From a virus (Duplodnaviria; Heunggongvirae; Uroviricota; Caudoviricetes), in the IMG/VR virus record IMGVR_UViG_2537561685_000009: a DNA stretch of 7,368 bases; one strand, 5' to 3'. The notes under the pieces are model-generated. The model was not told the origin of the DNA. It ran no database searches and saw only the letters and a program-made list of their open reading frames with translations. The translations under genes were made by a program, and so were the position numbers. The first letter of the stretch is position 1, and every line of letters starts with the position of its first letter. This document shows positions 1-7,368 of this stretch, one piece after another.

Positions 1-1
1 C

Positions 2-82
2 CGGATTTCGCCGGATGATGGCGGAAGCTGTCATCTCTGGCTTGGGCGGGGCGTACCGCCTGCCGTTAACCGTCGCCGCTGA
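2..82 (+). CDS. FII: 3' end of head-tail joining protein FII-like gene (partial, 5' truncated by window edge)
   Basis: Reading frame starting at position 2 translates to RISPDDGGSCHLWLGRGVPPAVNRRR and stops at TGA 80-82. This matches my recollection of the lambda gpFII C-terminus. It lies 11 nt upstream of the Z start, as expected for FII-Z synteny. Confidence 0.65.
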   Translation, partial: RISPDDGGSCHLWLGRGVPPAVNRRR

Positions 83-93
83 AAGGGGGATGT

Positions 94-672
94 ATGGCCA
101 TAAAAGGTCTTGAGCAGGCCGTTGAAAACCTCAGCCGTATCAGCAGAACGGCGGTGCCCGGTGCCGCCGCAATGGCCATTAACCGCGTTGCTTCATCCGC
201 GATATCGCAGTCGGTGGCACAGGTTGCCCGTGAGACAAAGGTACGCCGGAAACTGGTAAAGGAAAGGGCCAGGCTGAAAAGGGCCACGGTCAAAAATCCG
301 CAGGCCAGAATCAGGGTTAACCGGGGGGATTTGCCCGTAATCAAGCTGGGTAACGCGCGGGTTGTCCTTTCGCGCCGCAGGCGTCGTAAAAAGGGGCAGC
401 GTTCATCCCTGAAAGGTGGCGGCAGCGTGCTTGTGGTGGGAAACCGTCGTATTCCCGGCGCGTTTATTCAGCAACTGAAAAATGGCCGGTGGCATGTCAT
501 GCAGCGTGTGGCCGGGAAAAACCGTTACCCCATTGATGTGGTGAAAATCCCGATGGCGGTGCCGCTTACCACGGCGTTTAAACAGAATATTGAACGGATA
601 CGGCGTGAATGTCTTCCGAAAGAGCTGGGCTATGCGCTGCAGCATCAACTGAGAATGGTAATAAAGCGATGA
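94..672 (+). CDS. Z: Minor tail protein Z (tail completion protein)
   Basis: Intact 192-aa ORF (MAIKGLEQAVENLSRIS...HQLRMVIKR), near-identical in length and sequence to lambda gpZ as recalled. Purine-rich RBS (AGGGGGA) a few nt upstream of ATG 94. Stop TGA 670-672 overlaps the U start (ATGA). Confidence 0.9.
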   Translation: MAIKGLEQAVENLSRISRTAVPGAAAMAINRVASSAISQSVAQVARETKVRRKLVKERARLKRATVKNPQARIRVNRGDLPVIKLGNARVVLSRRRRRKKGQRSSLKGGGSVLVVGNRRIPGAFIQQLKNGRWHVMQRVAGKNRYPIDVVKIPMAVPLTTAFKQNIERIRRECLPKELGYALQHQLRMVIKR

Positions 673-1064
673 AACATACTGAACTCCGTGCAGCCGTACT
701 GGATGCACTGGAGAAGCATGACACCGGGGCGACGCTTTTTGATGGTCGCCCCGCTGTTTTTGATGAGGCGGATTTTCCGGCAATTGCCGTTTATCTCACC
801 GGCGCTGAATACACGGGCGAAGAGCTGGACAGTGATACCTGGCAGGCGGAGCTGCATATTGAAGTTTTCCTGCCTGCTCAGGTGCCGGATTCAGAGCTGG
901 ATTCGTGGATGGAGTCCCGGATTTATCCGGTGATGAGCGATGTCCCGGCACTGTCAGATTTGATCACCAGTATGGTGGCCAGCGGCTATGACTACCGGCG
1001 CGACGATGATGCGGGCCTGTGGAGTTCAGCCGATCTGACTTATGTCATTACCTATGAAATGTGA
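669..1064 (+). CDS. U: Tail tube terminator protein U
   Basis: 131-aa ORF starting at ATG 669 ([18 protein letters not shown]...LTYVITYEM), matching lambda gpU with a few substitutions. The track ORF 609..1064 is an upstream in-frame extension; the real start is the ATG overlapping the Z stop. Confidence 0.9.
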
Positions 1065-1071
1065 GGACGCT

Positions 1072-1799
1072 ATGCCTGTACCAAATCCTGTAATGCCGGT
1101 GAAAGGTGCCGGGACCACCCTGTGGGTTTATAAGGGAAGCGGTGACCCTTATGCGAATCCGCTTTCAGACGTTGACTGGTCGCGTCTGGCAAAAGTTAAA
1201 GACCTGACGCCCGGCGAACTGACCGCTGAGTCCTATGACGACAGCTATCTCGATGATGAAGATGCAGACTGGACTGCGACCGGGCAGGGGCAGAAATCTG
1301 CCGGAGATACCAGCTTCACGCTGGCGTGGATGCCCGGAGAGCAGGGGCAGCAGGCGCTGCTGGCGTGGTTTAATGAAGGCGATACCCGTGCCTATAAAAT
1401 CCGCTTCCCGAACGGCACGGTCGATGTGTTCCGGGCTGGGTCAGCAGTATCGGTAAGGCGGTGACGGCGAAGGAAGTGATCACCCGACGGTGAAGTCACC
1501 AAGTGGGCGTCCGTCATGGCAGAAGATCGCAGACGGTACGCGGCAACCGGATGACGTGACGCCTGCCAGCCTCGGTGGTGAAAGGGCAGAGCACCACGCT
1601 GACCGTGGCATTCCAGCCGGAGGGTGCAACTGACAAGAGCTTCCGTGCGGTGTCAGCGGATAAAACAAAAGCCACCGTGTCGGTCAGTGGTATGACCATC
1701 ACCGTGAATGGCGTTGCTGCAGGTAAGGTCAACATTCCGGTCGTATCCGGTAATGGTGAGTTTGCTGCGGTTGCAGAAATCACCGTCACCGCCAGTTAA
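1072..1799 (+). pseudogene. V: Major tail tube protein V, reading frame disrupted between about 1430 and 1575
   Basis: ATG 1072 ([31 protein letters not shown]...) is preceded by a GAGGA RBS. The N-terminal frame matches lambda gpV up to ...GTVDVFR, then ends at TGA 1462-1464. The continuation [17 protein letters not shown] is encoded in another frame (1434-1484), followed by short frame-hopping pieces (TVK, GRPS, MAEDR). The C-terminal Ig-like portion ([16 protein letters not shown]...AEITVTAS) is intact in the frame of ORF 1575..1799. The span 1072..1799 is 728 nt, not a multiple of 3. Confidence 0.8.
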
Positions 1800-1814
1800 T
1801 CCGGAGAGTCAGCG

Positions 1815-2237
1815 ATGTTCCTGAAAACCGAATCATTTGAACATAACGGTGTGACCGTCACGCTTTCTGAACTGTCAGCCCTGCAGCGTATTGAGCATCT
1901 CGCCCTGATGAAACGGCAGGCAGAACAGGCGGAGTCAGACAGCAACCGGAAGTTTACTGTGGAAGACGCCATCAGAACCGGCGCGTTTCTGGTGGCGATG
2001 TCCCTGTGGCATAACCATCCGCAGAAGACGCAGATGCCGTCCATGAATGAAGCCGTTAAACAGATTGAGCAGGAAGTGCTTACCACCTGGCCCACGGAGG
2101 CAATTTCTCATGCTGAAAACGTGGTGTACCGGCTGTCTGGTATGTATGAGTTTGTGGTGAATAATGCCCCTGAACAGGCAGATGACGCCGGGCCAGCAGA
2201 GCCTGTTTCTGCGGGAAAGTGTTCGACGGTGAGCTGA
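1815..2237 (+). CDS. G: Tail assembly chaperone G
   Basis: Intact 140-aa ORF (MFLKTESFEHNGVTVTLSEL...PVSAGKCSTVS), lambda gpG-like. GGAGAG RBS upstream of ATG 1815. Stop TGA 2235-2237. Confidence 0.9.
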   Translation: MFLKTESFEHNGVTVTLSELSALQRIEHLALMKRQAEQAESDSNRKFTVEDAIRTGAFLVAMSLWHNHPQKTQMPSMNEAVKQIEQEVLTTWPTEAISHAENVVYRLSGMYEFVVNNAPEQADDAGPAEPVSAGKCSTVS

Positions 2238-2653
2238 GTTTTGCCCTGAAACTGGCGCGTGAGATGGGGCGACCCGACTGGCGTGCCATGCTTGCCGGGA
2301 TGTCATCCACGGAGTATGCCGACTGGCACCGCTTTTACAGTACCCATTATTTTCATGATGTTCTGCTGGATATGCACTTTTCCGGGCTGACGTACACCGT
2401 ACTCAGCCTGTTTTTCAGCGATCCGGATATGCATCCGCTGGATTTCAGTCTGCTGAACCGGCGCGAGGCTGACGAAGAGCCTGAAGATGATGTGCTGATG
2501 CAGAAAGCGGCAGGGCTTGCCGGAGGCGTCCGCTTTGGCCCGGACGGGAATGAAGTTATCCCCGCTTCCCCGGATGTGGCGGACATGACGGAGGATGACG
2601 TAATGCTGATGACAGTATCAGAAGGGATCGCAGGAGGAGTCCGGTATGGCTGA
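1815..2653 (+). CDS. G-T: Tail assembly chaperone G-T fusion produced by programmed -1 ribosomal frameshift
   Basis: Slippery heptamer G GGA AAG at 2213-2219 lies near the 3' end of G. The -1 frame continues open from 2219 to TGA 2651-2653 and encodes the gpT-like sequence (FDGELSFALKLAREMGRPDWRAMLAGMSS...GIAGGVRYG). There is no independent strong start for T. This is the well-known lambda G/GT recoding arrangement. Confidence 0.8.
2213..2219 (+). promoter_or_regulatory. Programmed -1 ribosomal frameshift slippery site (GGGAAAG) for G-T synthesis
   Basis: Exact XXXYYYZ heptamer GGGAAAG positioned so that zero-frame codons are GGA AAG, 6 codons before the G stop, with the T frame open in -1. 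Confidence 0.8.
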
Positions 2654-5221
2654 ACCGGTAGGCGATCTGGTCGTTGATTTGAGTCTGGATGCGGCCAGAT
2701 TTGACGAGCAGATGGCCAGAGTCAGGCGTCATTTTTCCGATACGGAAAGTGATGCGAAAAAAACAGCGGCAGTCGTTGAACAGTCAATGAACCGGCAGGC
2801 GCTGGCTGCACAGAAAGCGGGAGTTTCCGTCGGGCAGTATAAAGCCGCCATGCGTATGCTGCCTGCACAGTTCACCGACGTGGCCACGCAGCTTGCAGGC
2901 GGGCAAAGTCCGTGGCTGATCCTGCTGCAACAGGGGGGTCAGGTTAAGGACTCCTTCGGCGGGATGATCCCCATGTTCAGGGGGCTTGCCGGTGCGATCA
3001 CCCTGCCGATGGTGGGGGCCACCTCGCTGGCGGTGGCGACCGGTGCGCTGGCGTATGCCTGGTATCAGGGCAACTCAACCCTGTCCGATTTCAACAAAAC
3101 GCTGGTCCTTTCCGGCAATCAGGCGGGACTGACGGCAGATCGTATGCTGGTCCTGTCCAGAGCCGGGCAGGCGGCAGGGCTGACGTTTAACCAGACCAGC
3201 GAGTCACTCAGCGCACTGGTTAAGGCGGGGGTAAGCGGTGAGGCTCAGATTGCGTCCATCAGCCAGAGTGTGGCGCGTTTCTCCTCTGCATCCGGCGTGG
3301 AGGTGGACAAGGTCGCTGAAGCCTTCGGGAAGCTGACCACGACCCGACGTCGGGCTGACGCGATGGCACGCAGTTCCATAACGTGACGGCGGAGCAGATT
3401 GCGTATGTTGCTCAGTTGCAGCGTTCCGGCGATGAAGCCGGGGCATTGCAGGCGGCGAACGAGGCCGCAACGAAAGGGTTTGATGACCAGACCCGCCGCC
3501 TGAAAGAGAACATGGGCACGCTGGAAACCTGGGCAGACAGGACAGCACGGGCATTCAAATCCATGTGGGATTCGGTGCTGGATATTGGTCGCCCGGACAC
3601 TGCCCAGGGAATGCTGGAGAAAGCAGAAAAGGCTTTTGATGAGGCGGACAAAAAATGGCAGTGGTATCAGAGCCGGAGCCACCGGCGCGGTAAAACCTCA
3701 GCATTTCGTGCCAATCTCCGGGGAGCATGGGAGGACAGAGCGAATGCGCAACTTGGACTTTCAGCCGCCACGTTGCAGGCCGATCTTGAAAAGGCCAGAG
3801 AGATGGCAGCAAAGGACTGGGCCGAGTCTGAGGCATCACGGCTGAAATATACCGAAGAGGCGCAGAAGGCTTACGAACGGCTGCAGACGCCGCTGGAGAA
3901 ATATACCGCCCGTCAGGAAGAACTGAACAAGGCACTGAAAGACGGGAGAATCCTGCAGGCAGATTACAACACGCTGATGGCGGCGGCGAAAAAGGATTAT
4001 GAAGCGACGCTGAAAAAGCCGAAACAGTCCGGCGTGAAAGTGTCTGCGGGCGATCGTCAGGAAGACAGTGCTCATGCTGCCCTGCTGACGCTTCAGGCAG
4101 AACTCCGGACGCTGGAGAAGCATGCCGGAGCGAATGAGAAAATCAGCCAGCAGCGCCGGGATTTGTGGAAGGCTGAAAATCAGTTCGCGGTACTGGAGGA
4201 GGCGGCACAACGTCGCCAGCTATCCGCACAGGAGAAATCCCTGCTGGCGCATAAAGATGAGACGCTGGAGTACAAACGCCAGCTGGCTGCACTTGGCGAC
4301 AAGGTTACGTATCAGGAGCGCCTGAACGCGCTGGCGCAGCAGGCGGATAAATTCGCACAGCAGCAACGGGCAAAACGGGCCGCCATTGATGCGAAAAGCC
4401 GGGGGCTGACTGACCGGCAGGCAGAACGGGAAGCCACGGAACAGCGCCTGAAGGAACAGTATGGCGATAATCCGCTGGCGCTGAATAACGTCATGTCAGA
4501 GCAGAAAAAGACCTGGGCGGCTGAAGACCAGCTTCGCGGGAACTGGATGGCAGGCCTGAAGTCCGGCTGGAGTGAGTGGGAAGAGAGCGCCACGGACAGT
4601 ATGTCGCAGGTTAAAAGTGCAGCCGCGCAGACCTTTGATGGTATTGCGCAGAATATGGCGGCGATGCTGACCGGCAGTGAGCAGAACTGGCGCAGCTTCA
4701 CCCGTTCCGTGCTGTCCATGATGACAGAAATTCTGCTTAAGCAGGCAATGGTGGGGATTGTCGGGAGTATCGGCAGCGCCATTGGCGGTGCTGTTGGTGG
4801 TGGAGCATCCGCGTCAGGCGGTACAGCCATTCAGGCCGCTGCGGCGAAATTCCATTTTGCAACCGGAGGATTTACGGGAACCGGCGGCAAATATGAGCCA
4901 GCGGGGATTGTTCACCGTGGTGAATTTGTCTTCACGAAGGAGGCAACCAGCCGGATTGGCGTCGGCAACCTGTACCGCCTGATGCGCGGCTATGCCACCG
5001 GCGGTTATGTCGGTACACCGGGCAGCATGGCAGACAGCCGGTCGCAGGCGTCCGGGACGTTTGAGCAGAATAACCATGTGGTGATTAACAACGACGGCAC
5101 GAACGGGCAGATAGGTCCGGCTGCTCTGAAGGCGGTGTATGACATGGCCCGCAAGGGTGCCCGTGATGAAATTCAGACACAGATGCGTGATGGTGGCCTG
5201 TTCTCCGGAGGTGGACGATGA
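2646..5221 (+). pseudogene. H: Tail tape measure protein H, frameshifted near 3341-3385 into a 246-aa N-terminal ORF and a 612-aa C-terminal ORF
   Basis: ATG 2646 overlaps the end of G-T (ATGGCTGA). The N-terminal ORF (MAEPVGDLVVDLSLDAARFDEQMARV...EAFGKLTT) runs to TGA 3384-3386. The continuation (SAEQIAYVAQLQRSGDEAGALQAANEAATKGF...) is in a different frame from 3383 and runs to TGA 5219-5221, with a long Ala/Gln/Glu-rich helical middle and a Gly-rich hydrophobic segment typical of tape measure proteins. DPTSG and MAR fragments are visible in alternating frames inside 3341-3373. Confidence 0.8.
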
Positions 5222-5547
5222 AGACCTTCCGCTGGAAAGTGAAACCCGGTATGGATGTGGCTTCGGTCCCTTCTGTAAGAAAGGTGCGCTTTGGTGATGG
5301 CTATTCCCAGCGAGCGCCTGCCGGGCTGAATGCCAACCTGAAAACGTACAGCGTGACGCTTTCTGTCCCCCGTGAGGAGGCCACGGTACTGGAGTCGTTT
5401 CTGGAAGAGCACGGGGGCTGGAAATCCTTTCTGTGGACGCCGCCTTATGAGTGGCGGCAGATAAAGGTGACCTGCGCAAAATGGTCGTCGCGGGTCAGTA
5501 TGCTGCGTGTTGAGTTCAGCGCAGAGTTTGAACAGGTGGTGAACTGA
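5218..5547 (+). CDS. M: Minor tail protein M (tail tip assembly)
   Basis: Intact 109-aa ORF (MKTFRWKVKPGMDVASVPSVRKVRFGDGYSQRAPAGLNANLKTYSVTLSVP...), lambda gpM-like. ATG 5218 overlaps the H stop (ATGA). Stop TGA 5545-5547 overlaps the L start (TGATG). Confidence 0.9.
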   Translation: MKTFRWKVKPGMDVASVPSVRKVRFGDGYSQRAPAGLNANLKTYSVTLSVPREEATVLESFLEEHGGWKSFLWTPPYEWRQIKVTCAKWSSRVSMLRVEFSAEFEQVVN

Positions 5548-6244
5548 TGCAGGATATCCGGCAGGAAACACTGAATGAATGCACCCGTGCGGAGCAGTCG
5601 GCCAGCGTGGTGCTCTGGGAAATCGACCTGACAGAGGTCGGTGGAGAACGTTATTTTTTCTGTAATGAGCAGAACGAAAAAGGTGAGCCGGTCACCTGGC
5701 AGGGGCGACAGTATCAGCCGTATCCCATTCAGGGGAGCGGTTTTGAACTGAATGGCAAAGGCACCAGTACGCGCCCCACGCTGACGGTTTCTAACCTGTA
5801 CGGCATGATCACCGGGATGGCGGAAGATCTGCAGAGTCTGGTCGGCGGAACGGTGGTCCGGCGTAAGGTTTACGCCCGCTTTCTGGATGCGGTGAACTTC
5901 GTCAACGGAAACAGCGAAGCCGATCCGGAGCAGGAGGTGATCAGCCGCTGGCGCATCGAGCAGTGCAGCGAACTGAGCGCGGTCAGTGCCTCTTTTGTAC
6001 TGTCCACGCCGACTGAAACGGATGGCGCTGTTTTTCCGGGACGTATCATGCTGGCCAACACCTGCACCTGGACCTATCGCGGTGATGAGTGCGGTTATAG
6101 CGGTCCGGCGTCGCGGATGAATATGACCAGCCGACGTCCGATATCACGAAGGATAAATGCAGCAAATGCCTGAGCGGCTGTAAGTTTCGCAATAACGTCG
6201 GCAACTTTGGCGGCTTCCTTTCCATTAACAAACTTTCGCAGTAA
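5547..6244 (+). pseudogene. L: Tail tip protein L, frameshifted near 6100 so the written ORF ends early at 6173
   Basis: ORF 5547..6173 (MQDIRQETLNECTRAEQSASVVLWEIDL...TWTYRGDECGYSGPA) matches lambda gpL and then diverges into SRMNMTSRRPISRRINAANA*. The expected C-terminus (DEYDQPTSDITKDKCSKCLSGCKFRNNVGNFGGFLSINKLSQ*) is encoded in the +1 frame from about 6103 to TAA 6242-6244. The span 5547..6244 is 698 nt, one short of a multiple of 3. Confidence 0.8.
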
Positions 6245-6248
6245 TCCC

Positions 6249-6986
6249 ATGACAGAGACAGAATCAGCGATTCTGGCGCACGCCCGGCGATGTGCGCCAG
6301 CGGAGTCGTGCGGCTTCGTGGTGAGAACGCCGGAGGAGGAAAGATATTTTCCCTGCGTGAATATCTCCGGTGAGCCGGAGGCGTATTTCCGGATGTCGCC
6401 GGAGGACTGGCTGCAGGCAGAATGCAGGGTGAGATTGTGGCGCTGGTCCACAGCCACCCCGGTGGTCTGCCCTGGCTGAGTGAGGCTGACCGGCGGCTGC
6501 AGGTGCAGAGTGATTTGCCGTGGTGGCTGGTCTGCCGGGGGCGATTCATAATTCCGCTGTGTGCCGCATCTCACCGGGCGGCGCTTTGAGCACGGGGTGA
6601 CGGACTGTTACACGCTGTTCCGGGAGCTTACATCTGGCGGGATTGAGATGCCGGATTTTCATCGCGGGGATGACTGGTGGCGTCACGGTCAGAATCTCTA
6701 TCTGGATAATCTGGAGGCCACAGGGTTTTACCGTGTCGCACTGACAGAGGCACAACCTGGCGATGTGCTGCTGTGCTGCTTTGGTTCATCGGTGCCGAAT
6801 CATGCCGCCATTTACTGCGGCGACGGTGAGCTGCTGCACCATATTCCTGAACAACTGAGTAAACGAGAGAGGTATACCGACAAATGGCAGCGACGCACAC
6901 ACTCCCTCTGGCGTCACCGGGAATGGCACGCATCTGCCTTTACGGGGATTTGCAACGATTTGGCCGCCGCATCGACCTTCGTGTGA
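6249..6986 (+). pseudogene. K: Tail tip assembly protein K (MPN/JAMM plus NlpC/P60-like), frameshifted at about 6421 and again at about 6540-6556
   Basis: ATG 6249 (MTETESAILAHARRCAPAESCGFVV...FRMSPEDWLQAE) is followed by a frame break. The conserved MQGEIVALVHSHPGGLPWLSEADRRLQVQSDLPWWLVCRG, which contains the JAMM-type HxH-x7-S-x2-D motif, is encoded in another frame from 6422. Frame 0 resumes at 6561 (PHLTGRRFEHGVTDCYTLF...NHAAIYCGDGELLHHIPEQLSKRERYTDKWQRRTHSLWRH...STFV*) to TGA 6984-6986. An alternative shorter start at ATG 6393 (MSPEDW) corresponds to the shorter lambda annotation as I recall it. Confidence 0.7.
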
Positions 6987-7368
6987 AAACGGGGGCCGAA
7001 GCCATCCGGGCGCTGGCCATGCAGATCCCGGCGTTTCGTCAGAAGCTGAGCGACGGCTGGTATCAGGTACGCATTGCCGGGCGTGATGCAGGTAAAACCG
7101 AATTGTCTGCCCGTCTTAATGAGCCGCTGGAAAATGGTGCCGTGATCCATATCGTGCCGCGTCTGGCAGGAGCCAAAAGTGGCGGTGTGTTTCAGGCTGT
7201 GCTGGGGGCGGCTGTTATGGCGGTTGCTATATGGATGCCGGGGGTAGGAATTATGGCGAGTAATCTGCTGTTTTCTCTCGGTGCCAGTATGGTGCTCGGT
7301 GGTGTGGCGCAGATGCTGGCACCGAAAGCCAGAACTCCCCGTACACAGACAACGGATAACGGCAAACA
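6884..7368 (+). CDS. I: Tail tip assembly protein I (5' portion; runs off the window end)
   Basis: Open frame from ATG 6884 (MAATHTLPLASPGMARICLYGDLQRFGRRIDLRVKTGAEAIRALA...GVFQAVLGAA...LFSLGASMVLGGVAQMLAPKARTPRTQTTDNGK) with no stop to the window edge, lambda gpI-like. It overlaps the 3' end of K in a different frame. An alternative start is ATG 6923. The central segment differs from lambda gpI as I recall it. Confidence 0.75.
   Translation, partial: MAATHTLPLASPGMARICLYGDLQRFGRRIDLRVKTGAEAIRALAMQIPAFRQKLSDGWYQVRIAGRDAGKTELSARLNEPLENGAVIHIVPRLAGAKSGGVFQAVLGAAVMAVAIWMPGVGIMASNLLFSLGASMVLGGVAQMLAPKARTPRTQTTDNGK

Follow-up and report, generated by a model that had tools for sequence, protein, structure and literature searches.

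Clustered deletions in a lambda-type prophage tail module of an ETEC draft genome as a probable artefact of merged prophage copies

Four genes of the lambda-type tail module analysed here, V, H, L and K, appear to be disrupted by small deletions, and these lesions are almost certainly an artefact of assembly or consensus calling that arose from merged paralogous prophage copies. The missing bases coincide with inter-copy differences and polymorphic sites, the lesions belong to individual assemblies, and finished genomes lack the deleted V allele; the preference of an earlier, sequence-only reading for sequence error over a decayed prophage is thus borne out. Judging from comparison with related genomes, the genome itself most likely holds each of these genes intact in at least two copies.

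The window (the whole stretch of DNA analysed, 7,368 bp) is the entire contig AQCA01000042.1 of the ETEC isolate E. coli p0305293.5 (assembly GCA_000359055.2), a short contig of 7.4 kb that stands alone. The sequencing project used Illumina HiSeq2000 reads at >200x average coverage, assembled with Celera Assembler; the link between p0305293.5 and the paper describing these methods is drawn from the isolate naming scheme and a GSCID statement.

The gene order Z-U-V-G-T-H-M-L-K-I is that of the lambda-type siphovirus tail module, as seen from annotated relatives and from Pfam matches on the called genes (Minor_tail_Z, Phage_tail_U, Phage_TTP_12/Big_2, Phage_TAC_2, Phage_tail_T, TMP_2/Tape_meas_lam_C, Phage_min_tail, Phage_tail_L and NLPC_P60), the same families as in lambda. 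DNA identity to lambda records is about 97%, and the description of the intact genes as near-identical to lambda was roughly right: a Lambda record aligns to 95% of the window with 97.4% identity. As in lambda, the G-T slippery site is intact, and nine full-length genes without internal stops are obtained once the 25 missing nucleotides are put back. Unlike lambda, the window combines two ETEC prophage haplotypes in a mosaic (A-type and B-type, after the two copies of strain 120899 described below), four of its genes carry very probably artefactual frameshifts as deposited, and the 859-aa H has a segment at about 3627-3822 that is divergent from HK630/lambda. The features are as follows, with splits and truncations that are most probably false marked as apparent.

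1 to 7368, plus strand: stand-alone repeat contig with a lambda-type tail module, a mosaic of A-type and B-type prophage-copy haplotypes
94 to 672, plus strand: Z, tail protein, 192 aa, intact (PF06763)
669 to 1064, plus strand: U, tail terminator, 131 aa, intact (PF06141)
1072 to 1799, plus strand: V, major tail protein, apparent split into 130/140-aa and 74-aa fragments; 246 aa after restoring 13 nt
1433 to 1570, plus strand: V patch, 12 deletion events (13 nt) from alignment to the intact relative
1815 to 2237, plus strand: G, tail assembly chaperone, 140 aa, intact
2219 to 2653, plus strand: T reading frame (part of the G-T fusion), intact
2646 to 5221, plus strand: H, tape measure protein, apparent split into 246-aa and 612-aa fragments; 859 aa after restoring 4 nt
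3340 to 3371, plus strand: H patch, 4 single-nucleotide deletions, all four placeable on sites that differ between copies A and B
5218 to 5547, plus strand: M, 109 aa, intact
5547 to 6244, plus strand: L, minor tail protein, apparent truncation to 208 aa with 1 nt missing at 6109/6110; 232 aa restored
6249 to 6986, plus strand: K, C40 peptidase, apparent split into 90-, 55- and 141-aa ORFs with 6 nt missing; 247 aa restored
6950 to 7368, plus strand: I, tail assembly protein, 5' part running off the contig end, without lesion

The intactness of Z, U, G, T and M, claimed from the sequence alone, is confirmed both in the ORFs and after alignment and restoration. Within the G/T overlap, at the 3' end of G, the natural -1 slippery motif GGGAAAG lies at 2213-2219; this motif serves as the slip site of lambda G-T. 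All the fragments reported for V, H, L and K (140, 74, 246, 612, 208, 90 and 141 aa) can be found among the ORFs, and the warning that annotation of the raw ORFs would mislead was well founded. Fragments were deposited as ENH51250.1, ENH51251.1, ENH51254.1, ENH51255.1, ENH51257.1 and ENH51258.1, and at least six very probably spurious truncated proteins from this contig now stand in GenBank/nr.

Indels were called against the closest intact relative, a prophage of ETEC TW10722 (98.6% identity). There are 24 events, all of them deletions in the window, amounting to 25 nt (23 single-nucleotide events and one of 2 nt); the alignment contains no insertion in the window. V lacks 13 nt, at junctions 1433/4, 1486/7, 1494/5, 1502/3, 1507/8, 1515/6, 1532/3, 1537/8, 1539/40, 1550/1, 1555/6 and 1569/70 (2 nt), and H lacks 4, at 3340/1, in the G run 3352-3354 (one G), at 3359/60 and at 3370/1. 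One nucleotide is missing from L (6109/6110) and one from the L stop/L-K spacer (6242/6243). The losses in K (6420/1, 6541/2, 6551/2, 6625/6, 6630/1 and 6638/9) total 6 nt, so that K is back in frame after 6639. The lesions had been described as patches of single-nucleotide deletions ending at 6565. The deletions extend further, to 6638/9, and the event at 6242/3 is a natural length variant common to 14 panel sequences and to copy B of strain 120899 that leaves L undisrupted.

The deletions share several properties. Codon position 3 is a possible placement for 23 of the 24 events, and the gaps between deletions within patches are multiples of 3. All four kinds of base are missing, 14/24 events lie outside any homopolymer, and the longest run involved is of 4. 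In a set of 84 related sequences, uncompensated non-3n indels of such kind and number occur in the window alone, and the pattern goes far beyond what chance would give.

The missing bases were compared with polymorphism in a panel of 83 related loci, where sites with a minor allele frequency of at least 0.05 were counted as polymorphic (12.3% of sites as background). All 25 missing nucleotides can be placed on polymorphic sites (hypergeometric p~1e-23); without freedom among equivalent gap placements the count is 16 of 25 (p~1.6e-9). A second comparison was with differences between co-resident copies. In the finished genome of ETEC strain 120899, one chromosome contains a pair of tail modules, copies A and B; they differ at 310 of 7,091 sites, and these sites hold 24/25 missing nucleotides (p~2e-32), or 16/25 under strict placement (p~2e-16). 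In the 220-bp V patch the copies differ at 13 sites, which are exactly the 13 missing nucleotides, and all retained sites are concordant; a panel pair (L001/L073) likewise explains 12 of the 13. In L and K the 120899 copies explain 7 of 8 sites, and the panel contains no perfect pair for this region. The exception is the nucleotide missing at 6420/1 in K, where A and B agree and the panel is A/G polymorphic. A search of complete genomes for the exact L/K haplotypes gave a best match of only 96.6%.

Sites that differ between A and B are only partly dropped. Of 291 such sites that are retained, 213 are A-type, 73 B-type and 5 other, that is, 286 have been resolved to one allele or the other. Merging would thus have to be limited to tracts, unless the copies of this clone are identical outside those tracts. 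When the window was probed for a chimeric consensus by building it as a minimal mosaic copied from panel sequences, it required 17 segments in reference positions 5751-6800, where the median is 6.5; this number is also reached by 9 of the 56 real sequences.

Genuine pseudogenisation of V, H, L and K, by true single-nucleotide losses in a decaying lambdoid prophage, has next to no probability in the light of these results. E. coli often harbours defective lambdoid prophages, whose tail genes likewise look disrupted, and real decay is seen in relatives: an IS66-family element (IS66/ISCro1) is inserted in Z of copy B in strain 120899, and a V frameshift that leaves a 44-aa fragment is reproducible across 13 contigs, complete genomes among them. 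The lesions of the window, unlike these, are not reproducible and lie on inter-copy SNP sites only. Pseudogenes would require 23 independent deletions without any insertion, nonsense mutation or larger lesion, with 23/24 events at wobble positions and all on SNP sites between intact relatives. We know of no mutational process that deletes only wobble or SNP sites. Decay would be expected to be independent of codon position and polymorphism and to be accompanied by other damage; the deletions show no such independence, and no further lesions are left after restoration.

The distribution of the lesions also argues against pseudogenes. Not one of 4,195 copies from 3,500 complete E. coli genomes, nor any of 81 phage records, has the V allele with the deletions; the best identity to it there is 94.4% (221/234), that is, 13 gaps and zero mismatches. 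The V junction string was not found in collections of species-representative genomes and metagenomes, and the K junction is in no IMG/VR record except that of the window. The deleted V allele was found only in contigs of the sibling colonies p0305293.3,.4 and.11, the last being the only one to have the H junction in common with the window; fragments are also in common with siblings.10 and.13. The sibling contigs with the deleted V allele contain 27-47 deletions and 0-2 insertions, in site sets that overlap without being nested. Colonies of the same patient, assembled separately, therefore differ in their deletions, although these fall on one class of sites throughout, and at least five sibling assemblies are affected at the prophage locus. 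Lesions that are neither identical in siblings nor present in finished genomes or phages do not behave as heritable; they are specific to the assembly.

Random sequencing error, from low coverage or from error-prone or long reads, was the cause favoured by the sequence-only reading. Single-base deletions in tight patches within a draft assembly are what such error might produce, and we nonetheless consider it hardly credible as an explanation. The published platform is Illumina HiSeq2000 at high average coverage (the isolate being linked to it by naming scheme), most events lie outside homopolymers, and insertions are lacking. There is no excess of private substitutions, with 5/291 retained informative sites matching neither copy. 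The positions are non-random, coinciding with polymorphic and inter-copy sites at p values of 1e-23 to 1e-32, and random error would not reproduce in three sibling assemblies the one 28-mer spanning three deletions that is found again there.

The same consensus mechanism could in principle act on heterogeneity between cells or templates, either through a mixed culture or through cross-sample carry-over of two strains. Mixed ETEC populations were reported for 2/12 patients of the same project (PMC4462620). In the same paper, isolates of the project are described as single colonies, and its account is also the basis on which the colonies of patient P0305293 are taken to be clonal. Since one chromosome of a finished ETEC genome holds both haplotypes, the window hits a median of 3 places per matching E. 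coli genome, and the effect recurs at the prophage locus across sibling assemblies, a two-strain mixture appears very improbable.

The explanation we prefer, collapse of prophage copies within one genome, would operate as follows. The ETEC clone of P0305293 very probably carries at least two lambda-type prophages with tail modules that are near-identical mosaics of each other; that p0305293.5 is multi-copy is suggested by the related finished genome 120899 and by the sibling colonies. During Illumina/Celera assembly, reads or unitigs of both copies would have been fused over some tracts of the contig, and within these tracts columns where the copies disagree would have given no base in the output, with concordant columns kept. 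As to the exact software step, we infer that a dropped column might be a gap call in the consensus, or an ambiguity code stripped before submission. The inter-copy differences are mostly synonymous third-position SNPs clustered in recombination tracts, which would result in tight patches of 1-nt deletions at multiples of 3 that frameshift V, H, L and K. With Illumina/Celera data of >200x, as the isolate naming implies, the cause is very probably consensus failure at paralogue-discordant columns.

Two other sources of such patches were considered. Stripping of ambiguity codes by the present data pipeline is ruled out, since the frameshifted fragments are already GenBank proteins of this record; the deletions were thus already in the submission, and stripping before that point is possible. 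A diversity mechanism of the DGR type, or other templated hypermutation, was rejected, as no repeat of at least 25 nt resembling the patches was found and bases of all four kinds have been deleted, not substituted.

Correlated discrepancies in multi-alignments are known to arise when near-identical repeat copies collapse (PMC1868940). The window resembles the "correlated SNP" signature of the Hawkeye/AMOS literature in that two near-identical copies seem to be represented in one contig, with discordant columns at inter-copy differences, a short stand-alone contig and an assembly-specific effect. A collapsed repeat usually receives the majority base or an ambiguity code and is chimeric but in-frame, whereas here the SNP columns appear as 1-nt deletions that create false frameshifts. 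We found no published account of columns emitted as nothing; the literature found gives general collapsed-repeat cases only.

An unlikely variant is that the A/B mosaics, and the deletion tracts that differ among siblings, stem in part from actual gene conversion still under way between co-resident tail modules during the clonal infection, in which case the dropped tracts could mark segments that are still heterogeneous. More modestly, there may be a systematic, undocumented consensus defect across the project. If so, false pseudogenes would have been seeded at multi-copy prophage loci across its approximately 200 ETEC drafts. Fragments similar to those of the window occur in sibling assemblies.3,.4,.10,.11 and.13, and also in a second patient series, P0304816; the indels of those colonies were looked at in less detail.

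Under collapse of prophage copies the locus is biologically ordinary, an intact lambda-type tail module of which the genome would hold several copies. At multi-copy prophage loci, such drafts would inflate counts of pseudogenes, calls of prophage intactness and pan-genome gene clusters. Artefacts of this class can be flagged simply and without reads, by comparison with a reference, from deletions that occur without insertions, are spaced by multiples of 3 and lie on SNP sites among relatives.

The plus strand of the window carries a lambda-type tail cluster (ORF map), which shows 97.4% identity to Lambda-group phages and 98.6% to a prophage of ETEC strain TW10722, annotated in the order FII, Z, U, V, G, T, H, M, L, K, I, J. 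The products of its frameshifted ORFs, looked up by exact match, identify the window as the whole of contig AQCA01000042.1 (7,368 bp) in assembly GCA_000359055.2, from Escherichia coli p0305293.5. In a global alignment with the intact TW10722 module, the window has 76 substitutions and lacks 25 nt in 24 indel events, every one a deletion; there are no insertions. The disruption of V, H, L and K noticed in the sequence-only reading is therefore real, and each fragment length it listed (140, 74, 246, 612, 208, 90 and 141 aa) is found in the ORF table. The K events reach slightly beyond the end of its range (1425-6565), to 6639.

Deletion events in the window, from alignment to the TW10722 tail module
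1433-1570, plus strand: gene V, 12 events (13 nt)
3340-3371, plus strand: gene H, 4 events
6109/10, plus strand: gene L, 1 event
6242/3, plus strand: L stop/spacer, 1 event
6420-6639, plus strand: gene K, 6 events

The event at 6242/3 keeps the TAA stop and is a natural length variant, common to 14 related sequences. Among 84 related sequences, only the window has many uncompensated indels of lengths not divisible by three. Within each patch the missing bases are separated, in reference positions, by multiples of 3, and the third codon position can accommodate 23 of the 24 events; the exception is position 1 of K codon 99, an A/G difference between references. Homopolymers are not involved in 14 of the 24 events. 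When the 25 bases are put back, nine full-length genes without internal stops result. The frameshift fragments have been deposited as GenBank proteins (ENH51254.1, ENH51255.1, ENH51257.1, ENH51250.1, ENH51251.1 and ENH51258.1); thus, the lesions belong to the public record itself and did not arise downstream.

The G/T overlap is no further lesion: its overlapping frames are normal, and GGGAAAG (2213-2219), the natural slippery site for programmed -1 frameshifting from G to T, is intact. Gene H encodes 859 aa in the window versus 853 aa in HK630 (annotated CDS of 2,562 nt). Its stretch at 3627-3822, a divergent and mosaic part of the tape measure gene, lines up cleanly with ETEC prophages, whereas alignment with HK630/lambda requires many small indels. 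In Escherichia phage Kati (L002, PP925833.1) a 1,497-nt "hypothetical protein" is annotated on the minus strand across L and K (5962-7458), with tiny ORFs where M, L and K should be; this looks like an annotation error in a tail module that is otherwise intact.

The missing bases coincide with sites that vary among relatives. Across the V patch (220 bp of gene V), a four-way alignment shows that all columns discordant among the intact references are missing from the window, bar one SNP private to Kati, and the remaining columns are all invariant. Two sequence types, that of TW10722 and L005 and that of L073, differ here at exactly 12 sites; the window lacks each of these 12, and wherever it keeps a base the two types are identical. 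When 83 related loci (80 IMG/VR contigs and three annotated records) were projected onto the reference, 25 of 25 missing bases fell on sites with a minor-allele frequency of at least 0.05, against a background of 12.3% of all sites (p~1e-23). With no freedom among equivalent gap placements, 16 of 25 did so (p~1.6e-9).

Both haplotypes occur on one chromosome in the finished ETEC genome 120899, which has two tail modules (copy A at 4.75 Mb, copy B at 0.57 Mb) differing at 310 of 7,091 aligned sites. The 13 nucleotides missing from the V patch are exactly the 13 sites at which these copies differ there; of all 25, inter-copy sites can take 24 (p~2e-32; strict placement 16/25, p~2e-16). At the 291 such sites retained, the window has the A allele at 213, the B allele at 73 and neither at 5, and nearly all its "substitutions" relative to its closest relative are the other copy's allele. 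The lesions are not biological but a consensus artefact, located where paralogues disagree in a contig merged from prophage copies; in the organism itself the tail genes are almost certainly intact. That the heterogeneity lies between cells instead of between paralogues is disfavoured by the presence of both haplotypes on one finished ETEC chromosome. Templated hypermutation was also rejected, as no repeat pair is present and the changes are losses of bases of all four kinds.

Correlated discrepancies in multi-alignments are documented to arise when near-identical repeat copies collapse (PMC1868940). We infer that reads or unitigs from both prophage copies were layered together and each mismatch column resolved as a gap. 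A mismatch might have been split into two half-gapped columns; alternatively, an ambiguity code might have been dropped before submission. The consensus at 5990-6760 (L-K) switches many times between A-type and B-type alleles, and its best match among complete E. coli genomes is 96.6% (8 gaps and about 18 mismatches); it may be a chimera matching no real molecule.

By its naming scheme, isolate p0305293.5 would belong with those of Sahl et al. (PMC4462620), who sequenced several colonies per patient in Dhaka (Illumina HiSeq2000, 300-bp inserts, >200x average coverage, Celera Assembler, contigs of at least 500 bp retained); P0305293.1 is listed as GSCID-sequenced, Bangladesh 2011. This platform and its depth, the absence of homopolymer bias and the coincidence of missing bases with polymorphic and inter-copy sites all contradict the low-coverage or error-prone reads favoured in the sequence-only reading. 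The two patients named in PMC4462620 as having mixed populations do not include P0305293, whose population was thus probably clonal.

A 28-mer spanning three V deletions had no match in the species-representative genome set or the metagenome collection, and the V patch had no match above 94.4% at 4,195 places in 3,500 complete E. coli genomes, nor in 81 phage records. The best match (221/234) has no mismatches and all 13 gaps. The 28-mer is present in three IMG/VR contigs, identified via their own frameshift fragments as p0305293.11, p0305293.4 and p0305293.3, separately assembled isolates of the same patient; p0305293.13 and p0305293.10 also hold fragments identical to the window's V pieces. 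The three contigs have 27-47 deletion events and 0-2 insertions, likewise enriched on polymorphic sites (p 1e-23 to 1e-29). Their sites overlap those of the window without nesting (10-14 of 25 shared), and their V deletions form contiguous blocks with different end points. Deletion tracts in these sibling contigs often lie at changes from A-runs to B-runs. All differences between the window and.11 (80/80) or.3 (87/87) are at inter-copy sites. Inherited lesions would be the same throughout a clonal population, and random errors would not hit the same sites again; only a deterministic failure at inter-copy differences, with different read or unitig merges in each assembly, fits. Genuine prophage decay is excluded for practical purposes: the window lacks insertions, stops and large lesions, its lesions are restricted to wobble/SNP positions, the deleted allele is not found in finished genomes, and sibling colonies do not reproduce the lesions. 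The artefact is a warning for users of these draft genomes.

Contig L077 (IMGVR_UViG_2534682175_000013) has isolated, uncompensated 1-nt deletions in L and K (reference positions 5973, 6747 and 6765), of which two lie on polymorphic sites. Fragments from this contig are deposited in GenBank as proteins of E. coli P0304816.10 and P0304816.5, colonies from a different patient in the same project, and the artefact probably extends beyond one patient series.

Genuine prophage decay is seen in copy B of strain 120899 (L088 3270-5885, NZ_CP025916.1), where an IS66-family element (tnpA, tnpB, ISCro1-like transposase) interrupts gene Z. ISCro1 annotations also lie under whole-window matches in strains 602354, O177:H21, SEC470 and H10407. 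At the start of V in the compared sequence L085 (3285-3419), a 1-nt G deletion (position 1639 of L001) gives a 44-aa V fragment, which is found on 13 contigs, among them Logan assemblies and complete chromosomes of 5.2-5.5 Mb, and is also named for p0305293.15. Unlike the lesions of the window, this frameshift seems to be genuine and inherited in some lambdoid prophages.
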